Shown one piece after another: positions 2,354 to 24,797 of a stretch of DNA of 32,000 bases. Each line of letters begins with the position of its first letter. Positions within the stretch are counted from its first letter, which is position 1. The notes below the pieces were generated by a model that was not told the origin of the DNA, made no database searches, and worked only from the letters and a program-made list of their open reading frames with translations. This DNA is from Natronobacillus azotifigens. GTDB lineage: Bacteria; Bacillota; Bacilli; Bacillales; Amphibacillaceae. A program made the translations under genes and the position numbers. The stretch covers positions 83,716 through 115,715 of the forward strand of contig NZ_JAPRAT010000005.1 in NCBI RefSeq assembly GCF_026805325.1. Reading direction: 5' to 3'.

Positions 2354-3394
2354 TTAATCCATGGATGAACGAGAAGCAATATTAGGGTGAGATTTGAAAT
2401 GCTCGATATATTCCAGTGCTTTACCGGTTCCAATCGCAACACTATCAAGTGGTTGGTCTGCCACAAAGACAGGCATCTTCGTTTCCTCACTAATTACTTC
2501 GTCCAAACCTTTTAATAATGCACCACCACCGGATAGTACGATACCACGGTCCATTACATCGGCAGATAATTCTGGTGGTGTTTTTTCTAGTGTGTTCTTT
2601 ACGGCATCAATAATTGCCACAACTGTATCACGCAAAGAGTTTGCAATTTCTTCAGCAGTTACTGAAATCGTTTTTGGTAAACCAGTTAATAAATCTCTAC
2701 CACGAATGTCCATCGAACTATTTTCTTCCGGCTTGCCAGCATTACCAATATCCATCTTGATTGCCTCTGCTGAGCGTTCTCCTATCATCAGACTATATTT
2801 TTTACGGATATATTGGATAATTGCATCATCCATATCGTCACCAGCAGTTCGAATCGATTGACTAGTGACAATCCCACCCAAGGAGATAATAGCTACCTCT
2901 GTCGTACCACCGCCGATATCAACAATCATACTACCGGTTGGTTCCCAAACAGGTAATCCAGCTCCAATTGCAGCTGCAAATGGTTCCGCAATAGGGTATG
3001 CTTCTTTTGCCCCTGCTTGTTTTGTCGCATCAATTACAGCTCTCTCTTCTACCATTGTAATACCTGATGGAACACATACCATTACGTTTGGTTTCTTAGC
3101 AAGAGCAGAGCGATTTTTTTGTGCTAATCGTATATAATATTTCATCATCGATGCAGTAGTATCATAATCAGCAATAACACCATCTTTCATTGGACGAATC
3201 ACTGATATATTCCCGGGTGTTCTTCCGATCATGTTGCGCGCATCACTTCCGACTGCTTCAATATCACCAGTCGAGTTATTTCGAGCTACAACGGAAGGTT
3301 CTCTAACTACGATTCCTTTTCCTTTAATATAAACCAATGTATTTGCTGTTCCTAAATCTATTCCTAAGTCTTGTGTAAAACTAAATCTTGCCAC
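2354..3394 (-). CDS. mreB: Actin-like rod shape-determining protein MreB
   Basis: 346-aa ORF nearly colinear with B. subtilis MreB ([44 protein letters not shown]). GTG start has the RBS AGAGAGGAAG upstream. Confidence 0.97.
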
Positions 3395-3590: not shown

Positions 3591-3731
3591 CTATACATAT
3601 CCTTTTTCTTTTAATGATACAAATTTGTGGTCGCCAATAACTAAATGGTCCAAAAGTTCGATGCCAATCATCTTACCACATTCACTAAGGCGCTTTGTCA
3701 CATGAATATCTTCTTGTGACGGTGATGGATC
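3591..3731 (-). CDS. radC: RadC-family JAMM protein, exon 2 (46 codons plus stop)
   Basis: The reverse complement from 3731 reads [46 protein letters not shown]. This is the missing conserved RadC C-terminus. It joins in frame to ...HNHPSG at 5538. Confidence 0.9.
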
Positions 3732-3734
3732 GTA

Positions 3735-3826
3735 GGGTAGGAATTATGCGCCTTACTTTACAACAACGGTAGGTTTCATAACTCCCCCCTCAGAACCGTA
3801 CGTACACCTTTCAATGTATACGGCTC
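3735..3826 (-). ncRNA. Group II intron catalytic domain V plus branch-point domain VI
   Basis: DV (3793-3826) reads GAGCCGTATACATTGAAAGGTGTACGTACGGTTC: 34 nt with the AGC triad, a GAAA tetraloop and the 2-nt bulge context. After a 3-nt linker, DV is followed by DVI. In DVI, GGGGGGAGTTATG (3789-3777) pairs with CATAATTCCT-A-CCC (3748-3735), leaving A3738 unpaired. Confidence 0.85.
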
Positions 3827-3841
3827 GCCAGTTAGTTCTTA

Positions 3842-4993
3842 TTAGAAAAGACTCCTTATTTCGCAACCTTTTTTTCGAAGCTTGTTAACAGTTGTTCTAC
3901 GTTTCATCGCTATTGTCTTTAATAAACTTCCTTTTGCATAATAAATCAACGTATGGAATTGACTTTTGAAATTATCTGCAAAATAATATTTCGTTTTGAA
4001 TTGATGTATTTCCTTTTGGAAAATGTTCATGATTTTTTCTTCAGAATAATTCATGCATGCTTTTCTGGGATCAATCGTCCGATCGTCGATGTTTCCATAG
4101 TTATATTTTTGTACATATTGCTTCAATTTAATATCAGGAATGTGGAATTGAAAGGATGTATTCGTTGGATTATCAGTAGATGTGGGAATTCTGAAGAAAT
4201 TACAATCGAAAAATAAGGTTGATTGATGAATATGTCGAATAGTATTATTCATCTTTAGACATAGAAAACGTGTCTTTTTACCTAGTGCCAACCTGATTTC
4301 TTGCTGTACATTTACTGCATTCTCTTTTCTCGATTTTATTCCAATTAAAAATTCTTCTTGGTAGCGAATATATTTAATTTGTTCACTGAAAGGTTCGCAC
4401 ATCATTTCTGTATCGAGTCCAAAAAAATAGATCTTTTGAAACAATCGATCAAACTCTGGGAACTCATTTCTCCATCGGGCATTACGAATGATCTGACTAA
4501 GTAACCTTATAAAGCGCTCATCAGCAACTTTTTCCCTTATCTTTTCAAGAAGAAATGCTCGTTTTTGCTTCAGTGGTACATCAATATATTCACCTTTGAT
4601 TACCCACGTGACCTCATCCCATGTTTTTTTGATTTCAATTATTTTGTGAGGAAGACTAGTTCGTTCTGTCTTCAAAGTGAACACAGGTGCATATATTTGA
4701 AGCATAACACTCATAATCACTCGCAAATATACTTTTGTCACGATCTGATATTCCTTTTCTGTTCGGTTAGTGATTTCTGAAAATTGAAAATGACCCCATC
4801 GTAATTGATTAATTACTTGGTCTATTAAACATGAAATATTATCATCGATATTCGCTTTTGTTAAAAAGATTTCCTGATAATTCTTTTTCCACAACGTTTT
4901 CTTATACAATAAGCGATAACAATCTTTTACTGGTTGATTACGAGCAGATACTTTTCTAATTTCGACTAATTGGTGAAATGGATTTTTTGCCAT
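3842..4993 (-). CDS. Group II intron-encoded protein: maturase (X domain) with a degenerate reverse-transcriptase domain and no DNA-binding/endonuclease domain
   Basis: The C-terminus FKTKYYFADNFKSQFHTLIYYAKGSLLKTIAMKRRTTVNKLRKKG matches the WxNYYxxAxN...TLAxKHKxS maturase signature. RT-like blocks are recognisable but mutated: YIRYQEEFLIG replaces YxRYADDFxIG, FPEFDRLF replaces GTPQGGxLSP, and WVIKGEYID replaces xxEGDIKxCFD. Likely start is ATG 4993 (RBS GGAAGGAG, 8-nt spacer); the ORF track extends to 5050. Confidence 0.85.
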   Translation of the reverse strand: MAKNPFHQLVEIRKVSARNQPVKDCYRLLYKKTLWKKNYQEIFLTKANIDDNISCLIDQVINQLRWGHFQFSEITNRTEKEYQIVTKVYLRVIMSVMLQIYAPVFTLKTERTSLPHKIIEIKKTWDEVTWVIKGEYIDVPLKQKRAFLLEKIREKVADERFIRLLSQIIRNARWRNEFPEFDRLFQKIYFFGLDTEMMCEPFSEQIKYIRYQEEFLIGIKSRKENAVNVQQEIRLALGKKTRFLCLKMNNTIRHIHQSTLFFDCNFFRIPTSTDNPTNTSFQFHIPDIKLKQYVQKYNYGNIDDRTIDPRKACMNYSEEKIMNIFQKEIHQFKTKYYFADNFKSQFHTLIYYAKGSLLKTIAMKRRTTVNKLRKKGCEIRSLF

Positions 4994-5537
4994 ATTCATG
5001 ACTCCTTCCACACTTTTCAGTTGATGAACCAACCTGTCTCCCTTCCCCATGCTATACGAATTACTCGCAAACGTAGAGTACTATGAAGACTCCGTTACCT
5101 TATGCAACATAGATATGGGTTGCACTTAGGTAATCCCTACCTAATCATTAATTTTAGTAGCGTGATGGTTAGGTATCCCTTTCGACGGTTATTTCGATTT
5201 GAAATTTGCCGAACAAACCTTACGATGGCAAGAATTAATTCTAGTTTAACAGTCTGACGATCTGTTGCCATTTTGTTCGCATTATCTATTAGCTATCATA
5301 AATAATGGTGGATCCAACACACATTCGTCTAGGATTCAGACAATTCAGCTTTTACCATACATCACTTGGTCTGAAGAACGGATTCGATGTTGATAGCATT
5401 ATCGTCTCTTCTCCTTTTCACATCATGCTATGTTCCTTTGACACGTTTCCGTTCAAAGTAAGATGCTGACCATAGAACATTGCAAGGAGTTCTAGATTAC
5501 TAGATAATCGCTAAAATTAACCACATTGTAGGCGCAC

Positions 5538-6086
5538 GCCAGAGGGATGATTATGCGCACAAATAATGGATGCGGCCGATCTTTTTACGGCTTCGCGAAA
5601 AACTTCGCGTGGATGGACGATTGAGGCATTGAGGCTTCCAATAAAAATAGTTTGTCTGTGAATGATTTGGTTCTTCGTATTGAGGAATAAAACCACGAAG
5701 TGCTCTTGCTTTAGTAGACGCATTTCTTCCATTACGAAATCAGCCCCGTCTTCTGGGCATCGTACCACATAACGATCTTCTGATTTCAGTTGATTCATGC
5801 GTTTTCCTAGTTCAATTGCAGCTAAAATACCAACAGCTTTGGCGGCTCCAATTCCTTTTATTGCCGTAAGTTCTTCCAGTGTCGATTCGCGCAATAAATT
5901 GATTCCTTCAAAATGCATTAGCACTCGCTGTGCTAATGCTTGTACAGATTCTGTTTTTGTTCCTGTTCCTAATAAGATCGACAGCAATTCTTGATTGGAA
6001 ACATGGCTTGCTCCAAGTTCCATGAGACGTTCCCGTGGTCGATCTTGTTTTGGCATGTCCTTCATTGTCACGTGTAATCCGGTCAT
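5538..6086 (-). CDS. radC: RadC-family JAMM protein, exon 1 (183 codons)
   Basis: ATG at 6086 has GAAAGGAGG 7 nt upstream. Motifs are DRPRERL, the helix-hairpin-helix LTAIKGIGAAKAVGILAAIELGKR, HPREVFREAV, and an end at CAHNHPSG (GGC at 5538-5540). Unspliced read-through adds only VRLQCG* from the intron. Spliced product is 229 aa; B. subtilis RadC is recalled to be of similar length. Confidence 0.9.
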
Positions 6087-6383
6087 TGCATTACCTCCTT
6101 TCTCTATACTTATTTTCATTCTAGCAACAATCCGAAAAATAACAAATTACCAATCTGTGTATTTGAGTTATAAAAATGCGTTAAAAACAGAATTATTGTT
6201 ACGAGAAAAATGAAAAATTAGGTGCGTAGAAAAAGCTATTTTATCGATTCAACGCATGTTTTCTTAAAGGAAAAGACCGGGAGTTCAACAGGTCATTTTG
6301 AGAAGCAATAAGAGGTTATACGGTGACAAGCTGCTGATTGTCACATCACGCTATAGCGTGACTCATTACAACAAGAAACAAGT

Positions 6384-11040: not shown

Positions 11041-11157
11041 GTGTACCTCTCCTTTGAAATATTTTTTATATTTAAAAGTAGGTTGCACTACTAGCTCGAC
11101 ATGATCCAAGTGCCCAGATAAAGATCATGCTTCATCGCTCCTAAAATACCCATCATT

Positions 11158-21639: not shown

Positions 21640-24288
21640 TTATTGCTGTAATTCTTCGATTCGAGCAGCAACTTTCGCGCGTTTCTCTAAATAGTCAGCC
21701 TCTTTTTGTCGTTCTTCCTCTACTACCTTTTCTGGAGCCTTTTTCGTAAATCCTTCATTCGCTAATTTCTTTTGTACACGTTCTACCTCTTTGTTCAATT
21801 TCTCTAATTCTGCTTGCAGACGTGCAATTTCTTTTTCGGCATCAATTAAACCAGCCAATGGCAGATACAATTCTGCACCGGTAACAACAGCTGACATTGC
21901 TTTTTCTGGGGCTTTCACATCGATTGCGATTGTCAGTTCACTTGTGTTACAGAAACGGTCAAGATAATGACGATTATCTTTCAGTTGTTGTTCGATAGTT
22001 GGATCATTTGCTTTTATCGCTAAAACAATCTGTTTCGACATTGGTGTATCCACTTCAGCTCGGATGTTACGTACCGATCGGATAATACCAACTAACCGTT
22101 GCATCTCTGCTGCAGACTGTGGATCATTTAATGCGTCGTTAACTTCTGGCCAAGCTGCTTGCGTTATCGACTCTCCTTCATGTGGAAGGTACTGCCAGAT
22201 TTCTTCTGTCACAAATGGCATGAACGGATGAAGCATGCGCATGATTTGATCGAGCACATGAACAAGCACTGATCGTGTTGTTTGCTTTGCTTGCTCATCT
22301 TCTCCATACAACGGTAATTTAGCCATTTCAATATACCAATCACAGAAGTCATCCCAGATGAAGTTGTACAAGTACCTTCCTGCTTCCCCAAAGTCATATC
22401 GTTCAGTTTGCTTATTTACTTGAGTAATCGTTTCATTAAGTCTTGTGAGGATCCATTTATCCGCAACATTTTTTTCTGTTGTTAAATCAATCTCGTTATA
22501 TTTCATGCCTTCCACGTTCATTAACACAAAACGAGATGCATTCCAGATTTTATTGATAAAGTTCCATGTCGATTCTACCTTTTCCCATTGGAATCGCAAA
22601 TCTTGGCCAGGAGTTGAGCCGGTTGCTAAGAAATAACGTAAAGAATCTGCTCCATACTTTTCGATAACATCCATTGGATCAACACCATTGCCTAGAGATT
22701 TACTCATTTTTCGTCCATCGGCATCACGCACAAGACCGTGAATGAGTACATCTTTAAATGGACGTTCATCTGTAAATTTTTTTGATTGAAAAATCATTCG
22801 AGCTACCCAGAAGAAAATGATGTCATAACCGGTAACTAATGTGCTGGTTGGGAAGTAGCTTTGGAAATCAGGATCTTCCGTATCTGGCCAGTTCATGGTA
22901 GAGAACGGCCATAGTGCAGAAGAGAACCACGTATCTAAAACATCTGTGTCTTGTTCCCAGTTTTCACTATCAGCTGGCGCTTCTTTCCCTACATAAATTT
23001 CTCCTGTTTCTTTATGATACCAAGCAGGGATGCGATGTCCCCACCATAGTTGGCGAGAAATACACCAATCACGGATATTTTCCATCCAACGCAGATACGT
23101 ACCTTCAAATCTTTCTGGAACAAAATTTACTTTTTCAGAAGAATTCTTTTGTTGTAATTCAACTGCTGCATCTGCTAAAGGCTGCATATGAACAAACCAT
23201 TGTGTTGATAAATATGGTTCTACAACAGCCCCACTACGCTCGGAATGTCCAACTGAATGAATATGTTCTTCAATTTTGAATAGAATCCCTTCCTCTTGAA
23301 GGTCTTTTACTAATTGTTTTCGACATGCAAAGCGATCTAATCCTTTATATTTTCCCGCTTTCTCGTTCATCGTTCCATCTTCATTCATGACAAGCACGCG
23401 CTCTAAATTATGACGATTCCCGATTTCAAAGTCATTCGGATCGTGAGCTGGAGTAATTTTTACTGCACCAGAACCAAATTCCATATCAACATAGTCATCT
23501 GCAACAATTTCAATTTCTCGCCCAACGATAGGTAAAACAACTTTTTTTCCAATTAAATGTTGATAACGTTCATCTTTTGGATGAACAGCAACAGCTGTAT
23601 CTCCCAGCATTGTTTCCGGACGTGTTGTAGCAATTTCAATATATCCTTCTTCGTCTTTGAGTGGATATCTCATATGATAGAAATGACCAGTTACTTCTTC
23701 ATGAATCACTTCAATATCAGAAAGTGCTGTTTTCGTAGCAGGATCCCAGTTAATAATATATTCTCCGCGATAAATTAAACCTTCCTCATACAATTTCACG
23801 AATACTTCTTTAACTGCTTCTGATAAACCTTCATCAAGCGTAAAACGTTCTCTTGAATAATCTAAACCTAGACCCATTTTTGCCCATTGTTCGCGAATAA
23901 AAGAAGCATAAGATTCTTTCCAGTCCCACGCTTTCTCAAGAAACTTTTCACGACCTAGGTCATAACGACTTACTCCTTCTTCACGAAGTTTAGCTTCTAC
24001 CTTTGCTTGAGTCGCAATTCCTGCATGGTCCATTCCTGGCAAATATAGAACATCATAGCCTTGCATCCGTTTCATTCGCGCAATAATATCTTGCAACGTT
24101 GTATCCCATGCATGACCAATGTGTAGCTTCCCTGTAACATTTGGTGGTGGTATTACTACCGTATACGGTTGTTTCGTTTCTTCTCTTGTTGCCTCAAAAA
24201 ATTTCCCTTCCACCCAATATTGATAACGCCCAGCTTCTACAGCTGTCGAATCATACTTCGGTGGTAAATTTTGTCCATTTTCTGTCAT
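21640..24288 (-). CDS. valS: Valine--tRNA ligase
   Basis: 882 aa with the HIGH motif ([13 protein letters not shown]), KMSKS, an editing domain and a C-terminal coiled coil. RBS is AAAAGGAGGAC. Confidence 0.98.
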
Positions 24289-24494: not shown

Positions 24495-24797
24495 TATAAA
24501 AAACCCTATTCATCCTAATAGAAAGGACGAAAAGGGTTATATTCCGTGGTACCACCTTTGTTTATAGCTGAACCCTTCCTACCAAAAGGTTCATGCTATA
24601 CACTTGTTAGATTTTAACGGTTTCTAACCGGCTTCCCCTACTGAACCTAATTATAAATACTCACTAGGCGTTCAAAGAAACTGCTTCCGAGGCTACCTTC
24701 CAAATCAATTTAACCTAGAAAATCTTTCAGCATATGATTTTCCTCTCTTAAGGTTTTGGGTTTGTACTCTTCCTCATCATTGCATTTCACATTGTAT
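24495..24797 (-). promoter_or_regulatory. T-box riboswitch leader of valS (valine specifier)
   Basis: Minus-strand elements: GA/AGTA motif TGATGAGGAAGAGTA, AGAGA box, candidate specifier GUA (24694-24696) within GGAAGGUAGCC, F-box-like CCGTTA, and the T-box sequence AAAGGTGGTACCACGGA (24543-24560). The terminator AACCCTTTTCGTCC...GGATGAATAGGGTT plus TTTTTTAT lies at 24496-24538. Confidence 0.85.

Follow-up and report, generated by a model that had tools for sequence, protein, structure and literature searches.

The radC group IIA intron of Natronobacillus azotifigens and its probable reduction to a splicing-only element

The radC gene in a 32,000-nt stretch of the Natronobacillus azotifigens genome (contig NZ_JAPRAT010000005.1; the whole stretch is called the window below) is interrupted on the minus strand by a 1,806-nt group IIA intron, window 5537..3732. 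The insertion lies inside the JAMM-type motif HNHPSG|DPSPS (general form HNHPSG|DPxPS), and the intron carries an open reading frame (ORF) whose product, the intron-encoded protein (IEP), keeps a maturase (X) domain and is substituted at the catalytic positions of reverse transcriptase (RT). The resident intron is very probably immobile by now, and its IEP would be a splicing-only maturase descended from an RT similar to LtrA.

The interrupted gene, the intron-encoded protein and the ribozyme

In-silico excision of the intron fuses HNHPSG to exon 2 and restores the full RadC frame. This agrees with an earlier note on this DNA, made from its letters, which had placed the insertion in an essential-context motif of a host gene. 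The radC orthologues at two related loci (L001/L004) match Pfam RadC and UPF0758_N, and in the assemblies examined gene callers have broken radC into pieces at the intron. The parts of the locus are:

5538..6119, minus strand: radC exon 1, maximal ORF extent, ending ...ICAHNHPSG (ORF list and sequence)
3732..5537, minus strand: group IIA intron of 1,806 nt, 5' GTGCG, 3' ...CCUACCCUAC, with an Rfam match to domains V and VI (DV/DVI)
5533..5537, minus strand: 5' splice-site consensus GUGCG, identical in 19/19 introns
3591..3731, minus strand: radC exon 2, the C-terminal part of RadC, ending ...KGYV* and starting directly past the intron 3' end (...CUAC at 3732)

In unspliced radC the frame enters the intron for six codons (VRLQCG, window 5517-5537, minus strand) and then meets a stop, which gives a 200-aa RadC without the second half of the motif. 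It is this truncated product of exon 1 that gene callers give as radC in the related contigs.

The blocks of the IEP were mapped by alignment to six RT-competent relatives and to LtrA:

3842..4993, minus strand: IEP, 383 aa plus stop, identical to WP_268779169.1 ('hypothetical protein', Natronobacillus azotifigens)
4989..5007, minus strand: Shine-Dalgarno and start codon in the DIVa-equivalent region (AAGGAGUCAUGAAUAUGGC), conserved in both the full-length and the degenerate introns
4889..4993, minus strand: RT0 block, MAKNPFHQL...DCYRLLYKKTLW, the best-conserved segment of the degenerate family
4577..4597, minus strand: RT3/motif A remnant, KGEYIDV for EGDIKGF by the alignments; GEY is residues 134-136
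4484..4531, minus strand: RT3a block KVADERFIRLLSQIIR, kept, with D158, R160 and F161 nearly invariant
4424..4459, minus strand: RT4/motif B remnant, PEFDRLFQKIYF for PQGGIISPLFANIYL by the alignments; PEFDRLF is residues 179-185, from 4459 downward
4352..4363, minus strand: RT5/motif C remnant, YQEE for YADD, residues 211-214, by direct alignment to the YADD of LtrA
3866..4102, minus strand: domain X/thumb, NYGNIDD...KYYFADNF...LLKTIAMKRRTTVNKLRKKG, from Pfam PF01348, the LtrA alignment and conservation

Set against its relatives, the window protein compares as follows:

RT1: present in relatives; deleted in the window protein
RT2: IPKxNGKxRPLG in relatives; absent
RT2a: HGFR in relatives; absent
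Motif A: GDI..FFD in relatives; GEYIDVPL in the window protein
Motif B: PQGGIISPLF in relatives; PEFDRLF in the window protein
Motif C: YADD in relatives; YQEE in the window protein
RT4a insertion: present in relatives; absent
DNA-binding and endonuclease region (D/En): present in relatives; absent, the C-terminus lying about 10 residues past domain X

The IEP begins with MAKNPF 8 nt past an AAGGAG Shine-Dalgarno sequence. All strings quoted in the earlier note (KYYFADNF, LLKTIAMKRRTTVNKLRKKG, YQEE, PEFDRLF and GEY) are present in ORF 3842..4993, KYYFADNF as residues 335-342 (3968-3991) and LLKTIAMKRRTTVNKLRKKG as residues 357-376 (3866-3925). Its claims that every catalytic RT position is substituted and that the D/En domain is missing were borne out: the alignments set YQEE on YADD, GEY on GDI and PEFDRLF on PQGGIISPLF. 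The profile check that it proposed, with RVT_1 and PF01348 (Intron_maturas2), gave no Pfam match to RVT_1 even at E ≤ 10 and a weak, sub-threshold one to Intron_maturas2. No catalytic Asp stands at any of the three aligned positions; a nearby Asp, which may be a shifted candidate, lies three residues past the motif A Glu (GEYID). MatK_N (PF01824) was likewise not matched at E ≤ 10, and an NCBIfam search of the protein gave nothing meaningful.

The retention of domain X that the note describes is supported by the LtrA alignment, the structural model and conservation in relatives, the PF01348 match of the window protein itself being sub-threshold. The gathering score of PF01348 is passed by 7/9 RT-degenerate relatives scanned (31.8-50.5 bits), and the full-length sister P0002 (633 aa, same N-terminus) matches RVT_1 with 123 bits and Intron_maturas2 with 42.3 bits and has an AI2M-like HNH. 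Aligned alone, the window protein matches LtrA significantly only over residues 203-371 (RT5 through X, E = 8e-7), and the family profile matches it with E = 8e-49. An AlphaFold2 model built from 19 sequences reached a mean local confidence (pLDDT) of 87 and a predicted template-modelling score (pTM) of 0.80. Its best PDB match by Foldseek is LtrA (8h2h_D, an intron ribonucleoprotein; E = 8e-12, query TM-score (TMq) 0.72), followed by other group II RTs, and the thumb is covered with high confidence by both the model and the LtrA alignment. Because of these matches the modelled protein is taken to retain an RT-shaped scaffold, and not merely the thumb, although the chemistry is lost.

The ribozyme itself is well preserved. 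Rfam RF00029 (DV/DVI) matches at 3828-3732, scoring 64.2 bits where the cut-off is 40, and the following elements were located, EBS and IBS being the exon- and intron-binding sites:

3793..3826, minus strand: domain V with AGC triad and GAAA loop; Rfam match, 14/14 DV pairs retained in 15/15 introns
3732..3790, minus strand: domain VI with bulged branch-point A at 3738 and 3' end ...CUAC; the A is invariant and the stem is retained via double changes
5253..5259, minus strand: δ (C5259) and EBS1 (GUCAGA, 5258-5253), pairing 6/6 with IBS1 UCUGGC and with the exon 2 +1 G
5310..5317, minus strand: tentative EBS2 loop UUGGAUCC, set against exon CAUCC by position and complementarity only; relatives have AUGGGUG

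DV is invariant apart from compensatory changes in its upper stem, and such changes are found in 10/30 DV/DVI pairs. EBS1 is the loop of a hairpin at intron nt 280-285 and its partner is the final six bases of exon 1. The tentative EBS2 has one end mismatch in the window copy, where allele L001 has GGAUG. Over DI-DIII and DV-DVI the window intron is homologous to 18 other radC introns, and its 5' 540 nt (DI-DIII and the start-codon region) align well with full-length introns. Weak Rfam matches inside the intron, to a plastid clpP intron and to a snoRNA model, were far under the gathering scores and were disregarded.

In all ten RT-degenerate introns examined the homologous loop matches its own exon 6/6 and δ-δ' is paired. 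Moreover, six different EBS1 words in these introns match six exon words, following synonymous changes in the Ser-Gly codons. The full-length or En-broken introns show EBS1-IBS1 pairing of 6/6 in only three of nine cases and of 5/6 in the others. The immobile introns thus fit their resident exons better than the mobile ones do, as expected under selection for splicing in place, and this co-variation points to plain cis-splicing.

A further observation concerns the same region. The full-length radC introns (L009/L014-L021, intron nt ~270-325) have two adjacent EBS1-like hairpins with the loop words NCCNGA (complement of TCN-GGN) and GCCRCT (complement of AGY-GGY), corresponding to the two serine codon families of HPSG, and in two introns their order is reversed. 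In each RT-degenerate intron one loop is left, the one matching the exon of that intron, the window remnant being at 5226-5262. The paired hairpins may be a dual-target homing device, or they may be ordinary DI substructure.

Selection on the reading frame and the family of radC introns

The ORF was compared with its counterparts in three allele lineages of this locus from metagenomes (protein identity 93-95%, synonymous divergence dS ~0.09-0.14). The dN/dS ratio (ω) was 0.33, 0.25 and 0.22 against the three, with a synonymous excess at binomial p = 5e-4 to 7e-7, and between near alleles not one indel was seen in 1,806 nt. The IEP dS of 0.09 is close to that of mreB (0.087), the gene next to radC:

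2354..3394, minus strand: mreB, directly 3' of radC (order radC-mreB-mreC-mreD-minC-minD); its product is identical to WP_268779168.1 of Natronobacillus azotifigens

The non-coding parts of the intron are 96.5-98.2% identical between near alleles and synonymous sites differ by ~9%. There are no stops in the IEP reading frame and 16-34 in each of the five other frames. Selection on the IEP is real but relaxed.

Conservation is also distributed in a characteristic way. Across 46 RT-degenerate relatives the mean pairwise identity is 0.45 for RT0, 0.40 for X and 0.33 for RT3a, against 0.08-0.19 for RT1, RT2, RT2a and RT4; in full-length proteins conservation is highest in the catalytic blocks. The occupancy of En is 0.02 in the degenerate family and 0.92 in the full-length proteins. 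In LtrA the intron RNA is contacted by RT0, RT3a and the thumb, and the shift of conservation to RT0, RT3a and X fits a protein retained for RNA binding. Between Ureibacillus xyleni and U. massiliensis, for which dS is saturated, all blocks evolve ~3x faster on dN and the catalytic block ~4.5x.

A scan of one genome per species together with contig look-ups gave 19 loci with related proteins, and all of them are introns at the identical radC position. Proteins of 627 aa with RT, X, D and En are found in Ureibacillus massiliensis, B. ndiopicus, a B. cereus-group strain, Peribacillus cavernae, Cytobacillus and a Bacillus metagenome-assembled genome (MAG). Those of the first five hosts share with the window protein the N-terminus (MAKNPFQQL...DCYRLLY in the full-length forms), and since they occupy the identical site the window IEP would derive from an ancestor with full RT, X and En. 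Freshly En-broken copies occur in Aquibacillus (also YAED) and Alteribacillus. RT-degenerate open frames of 375-480 aa are present, besides the window, in a metagenomic YADE form, U. xyleni (FAHV), Avamphibacillus (CLDT), a Bacillaceae MAG (SGRE), B. coreaensis (EFEQ) and Amphibacillus sediminis (SNQT, GTG start).

When 1.84 billion representatives were searched exhaustively with the profile, 342 proteins came up at E ≤ 1e-30. Among the best 150 cluster representatives, 49 have all three catalytic markers (median 614 aa), 38 combine the radC-type N-terminus with no catalytic marker (median 409 aa), and another 27 are also without any catalytic marker. Named members include five species of Amphibacillus, Oceanobacillus sp., Saliterribacillus, Virgibacillus/Tigheibacillus, Halalkalibacter and Priestia taiwanensis. 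When the 5' RNA of the introns is arranged in a tree by neighbour joining, the degenerate U. xyleni intron falls among the full-length introns of U. massiliensis and B. ndiopicus (100% bootstrap), with a second degenerate pair as the sister of this cluster (89%). As degenerate introns are nested with or sister to full-length ones, RT was apparently lost more than once, and the tree implies at least two independent losses.

These results bring us to a broader view, to which we lean with modest confidence: a radC-specific group IIA lineage of Bacillaceae/Amphibacillaceae may form a large undescribed family in which RT and En were lost repeatedly and independently, an RT-shaped maturase was kept, EBS1/δ co-evolved with the synonymous codons of the host and the second EBS1-like hairpin was shed. 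At least ~38 deeply diverged RT-dead clusters would stand in it beside the mobile 627-aa and the freshly En-broken forms, all of them inserted at one and the same radC codon. The idea that degenerate introns are inherited vertically and full-length ones horizontally was considered and is unsupported by the correlations of MreB identity with intron RNA identity, that for full-length introns being positive (0.63).

Several members of the family have peculiarities of their own. The Amphibacillus sediminis intron (L022:2524-4180) is the most reduced of the set, with 1,657 nt, a ~35-nt deletion in DI, a shortened DVI and a GTG start; it has a very long branch, its RNA being 65% identical to the window intron and its MreB 92% identical. 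In the Bacillaceae-MAG protein P0004 (L004/L012:4001-5371) the stop of the ORF is lost, and the frame, lengthened by ~40 residues, continues through DV/DVI and beyond the 3' splice site as far as radC exon 2. The C-terminus of the full-length proteins, ...QLASRIH*, is coded by the 5' strand of DV (L014:4860-4881, L022:4100-4122), and the shorter Amphibacillus sediminis protein terminates in the same DV-overlapping frame. In Bacillus sp. JCM 19034 (L023:3837-3850) a change from GGAAAT to GGAAT, a loss of 1 nt, shifts the frame directly before domain X; the probable cause in this draft is a sequencing error at a homopolymer, because the Halalkalibacter hemicellulosilyticus homologue is intact at 398 aa.

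Proposed mechanism and alternative explanations

According to the mechanism that we propose, radC would be transcribed together with the intron, and the 383-aa protein would be made from the unspliced RNA by means of the Shine-Dalgarno sequence and AUG in the DIVa-equivalent region. The IEP would then bind its own intron by the kept RT0/RT3a surfaces and by X/thumb, stabilising the active fold of the ribozyme. The intron would leave as a lariat, with EBS1/δ and probably EBS2 positioning the exons, DV providing the catalysis and the bulged A of DVI acting as nucleophile, and ligation of the exons would re-form the HNHPSG-DPSPS motif of RadC. Since RT1, RT2, RT4, YADD and En are missing, the IEP would be unable to copy the intron into DNA and the intron would no longer home. 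Translation, RNA binding, splicing and its dependence on the protein, maturase activity and the absence of RT activity are what we infer from the sequence.

A number of points weigh against this reading. Splicing, the dependence on the maturase and the absence of RT activity are deduced from sequence, and RadC is not known to be an essential protein, which leaves no evident source of pressure for efficient splicing. The match to PF01348 (residues 299-394 of the 402-aa ORF) reaches only 18.3 bits (E = 0.0024), short of the cut-off of 20.8. Glu stands at all three catalytic Asp positions, so that carboxylates survive and residual metal binding is possible from the sequence. The host genes are held much more tightly (ω = 0 for mreB and 0.03 for radC) than the IEP, whose ω of ~0.3 is relaxed. 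Within the protein the RT-like two-thirds have ω 0.20-0.30 and domain X 0.25-0.50, on small counts, so that X is not the more constrained part. Finally, vertical inheritance of the degenerate introns is unsupported, their MreB and intron RNA identities showing no correlation (Spearman -0.16), because all of them are about equally diverged.

The comparison of regions modifies what the earlier note had suggested, namely an immobilised intron with a protein retained for splicing alone. The ω of 0.22-0.33, the intact ribozyme and the EBS1/δ co-variation uphold that view, and purifying selection on the ORF was found as anticipated. The constraint is not confined to X, however; as selection is no stronger there than on the RT-like part, a protein kept only for its X domain is too narrow a description.

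It could be argued that the ORF is a decaying relic that has simply not been broken yet, while the intron splices by itself or with the aid of a host or trans factor. The gap in ω between the IEP and the neighbouring host genes would fit such decay, as would the ~3-4x faster non-synonymous evolution of degenerate lineages compared with full-length ones at similar host distance, the frameshift of L023 just ahead of domain X and the fresh En breaks in L016 and L018. Nevertheless the synonymous excess is significant in all three comparisons, and frames of 360-480 codons stay open at 20-35% identity in AT-rich sequence whose other frames stop every 11-24 codons. The conservation is patterned (RT0, RT3a, X) and not uniform. 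As to L023, its frameshift comes from one nucleotide missing from a short run of A in a draft assembly, and the close homologue in H. hemicellulosilyticus is intact. The check for simple decay proposed in the earlier note thus found relatives with open frames and a single one with a frameshift, and we regard decay as improbable.

The surviving carboxylates in GDI to GEY and YADD to YQEE, together with the confidently predicted overall RT fold, might also be taken to mean that the IEP is a weak or unusual polymerase with Glu for Asp at three catalytic positions and that the intron keeps some En-independent mobility; retrohoming of En-less group II introns via replication forks is indeed described (PMC4424553). 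Against this, RT1 is deleted, the Lys/Arg cluster of RT2, RT2a and the PQG..SP of motif B are gone, and RVT_1 gives no signal with Pfam at E ≤ 10. The relatives have SNQT, CNEH, HQHE, LQNQ or SGRE at the YADD position, and such non-acidic residues indicate that acidity there is not under constraint at the level of the family. No second copy of the intron was seen within the 32-kb window. The polymerase explanation is accordingly given very little credence. A last alternative is that the IEP has been recruited to a new role, either the regulation of radC or mreBCD-minCD by controlled splicing or an action in trans like that of MatK/nMATs. The intron always lies just 5' of mreB in a conserved gene order and the whole RT-like scaffold is constrained, beyond X. 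Such a role is not required by any of the data, though, and is unlikely: the conserved blocks are those tied in published work on LtrA to binding of the cognate intron, and the EBS-IBS co-variation indicates plain cis-splicing.

Known systems, significance and other observations

The nearest precedent for an immobile intron with a maturase-only protein is O.i.I2 of Oceanobacillus iheyensis, which is also inserted in radC. Zimmerly and Semper (2015) consider degenerate intron proteins rare in bacteria and name O.i.I2 as 'the only known' bacterial example (PMC4424553). As summarised in that review, O.i.I2 is of the ML class and without YADD and other RT motifs, the original report being Simon et al. 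2008, RNA 14:1704, and its retained maturase activity was deduced from the lack of stop codons (PMC4424553). The rarity claimed in the earlier note is therefore supported, but the phenomenon is not undescribed. Both introns are bacterial, of the ML class/IIA, sit in radC, have lost the RT motifs, keep an open frame and have been read as maturase-only; the host of O.i.I2 belongs to a related genus of halophilic/alkaliphilic bacilli and that of the window intron to Natronobacillus. O.i.I2 was compared by its description only, and orthology (insertion site, lineage) is accordingly presumptive. O. iheyensis was not matched by the N-terminal peptide patterns in the scan of the genome collection, nor by word-indexed protein searches with wider alignments; an Oceanobacillus sp. 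homologue, protein P0059, was found via cluster names and belongs to the family of the window protein. A maturase-only radC intron is thus already published in kind, from the same host gene and a related genus. The picture at the level of the family goes beyond the literature searched: O.i.I2 stands there as a single oddity, whereas here such an intron is one among ~38 or more divergent clusters, and the searches on radC group II introns, O.i.I2 and related phrases found no description of the wider radC intron family. Tourasse & Kolstø 2008 (PMC2504315) touch briefly on a radC-family intron of the B. cereus group.

The closest solved structure is that of Ll.LtrB/LtrA of Lactococcus lactis (PDB 5g2x, 8h2h), LtrA being a clear homologue of the window protein. 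Ll.LtrB shares with the window intron the IIA-type DV, the layout with the ORF in DIV and the RT0/RT3a/X blocks. LtrA, however, is a mobile 599-aa RT-X-D-En protein with YADD, whereas the window protein has 383 aa and is without RT1/2/2a/4, the catalytic Asp and D/En. Still nearer are the full-length Bacillaceae radC introns (Ureibacillus massiliensis L014, B. cereus-group L020), which have the same HNHPSG| site, protein N-terminus and X domain and whose 5' ribozyme part is 72-75% identical to the window copy where compared; they encode 627-aa proteins with RT, X, D and En and all catalytic motifs and have two EBS1-like hairpins where the window intron has one.

Among organellar proteins, MatK of the chloroplast trnK intron and the plant MatR/nMAT are RT-derived, align with RTs only from motif 5 on, keep X and are presumed to serve splicing only (PMC4424553). 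Like MatK, the window protein gives a significant alignment, here to LtrA, in the RT5-to-X part only, and all of these proteins reside in introns of conserved genes or act on them. They are nevertheless functional analogues of the window protein and not its relatives, the latter being of independent origin in a bacterial LtrA-like lineage; it is not counted as a MatK member because it has no MatK_N signal. MatK/nMAT act in trans on several introns, for which the window protein offers no evidence.

The loss of mobility with retention of the splicing helper is the supposed step from group II retroelements to fixed introns, and the same step is thought to underlie the RT descendants MatK, nMATs and, more distantly, Prp8. 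Bacteria have been considered almost devoid of this state, a single example being cited. The window copy would present the maturase-only state under purifying selection in a second genus, and its family a graded natural series at one insertion site, from active and En-broken forms through YADE and YAED to fully RT-dead ones. If this is true, bacteria offer a natural multi-stage series for the passage from a retroelement to a 'splicing-only intron', so far seen mainly in organelles. As the series occurs in culturable Bacillaceae, it should be possible to test which RT surfaces are sufficient for maturase function, in which order domains are lost and how intron and exon co-evolve after immobilisation. 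Proteins of this kind carry the annotation 'hypothetical protein' or the misleading one 'reverse transcriptase/maturase'.

RT-dead intron proteins of bacteria are not limited to radC. The MAG GCA_947625175.1 (L026:108-3285) has two tandem group II introns beside or inside a UvrD-like helicase gene, both with Rfam DV/DVI matches, which encode Intron_maturas2-only proteins with a degenerate YADD: RYAGSFLI (437 aa) and RYRGALLIG (397 aa). At L027:3001-4495 an En-less intron protein of 452 aa has YAHH for YADD and still scores on RVT_1; its intron lies between SLT-like and M23-peptidase genes in a conjugative-transfer cluster (TrbL, VirB4-like).

Two further regulatory RNA elements were seen in the window. 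A cyclic di-GMP (c-di-GMP-II) riboswitch at 11068-11149, minus strand, scores 71.6 bits against a cut-off of 53.5 and lies between ORFs of 404 and 163 aa, in what appears to be a type IV pilus/competence-pilus gene cluster. At 24520-24789, minus strand, a T-box leader (110 bits) precedes, on the 5' side, an 882-aa ORF (21640-24288), which judging by its size is probably an aminoacyl-tRNA synthetase.

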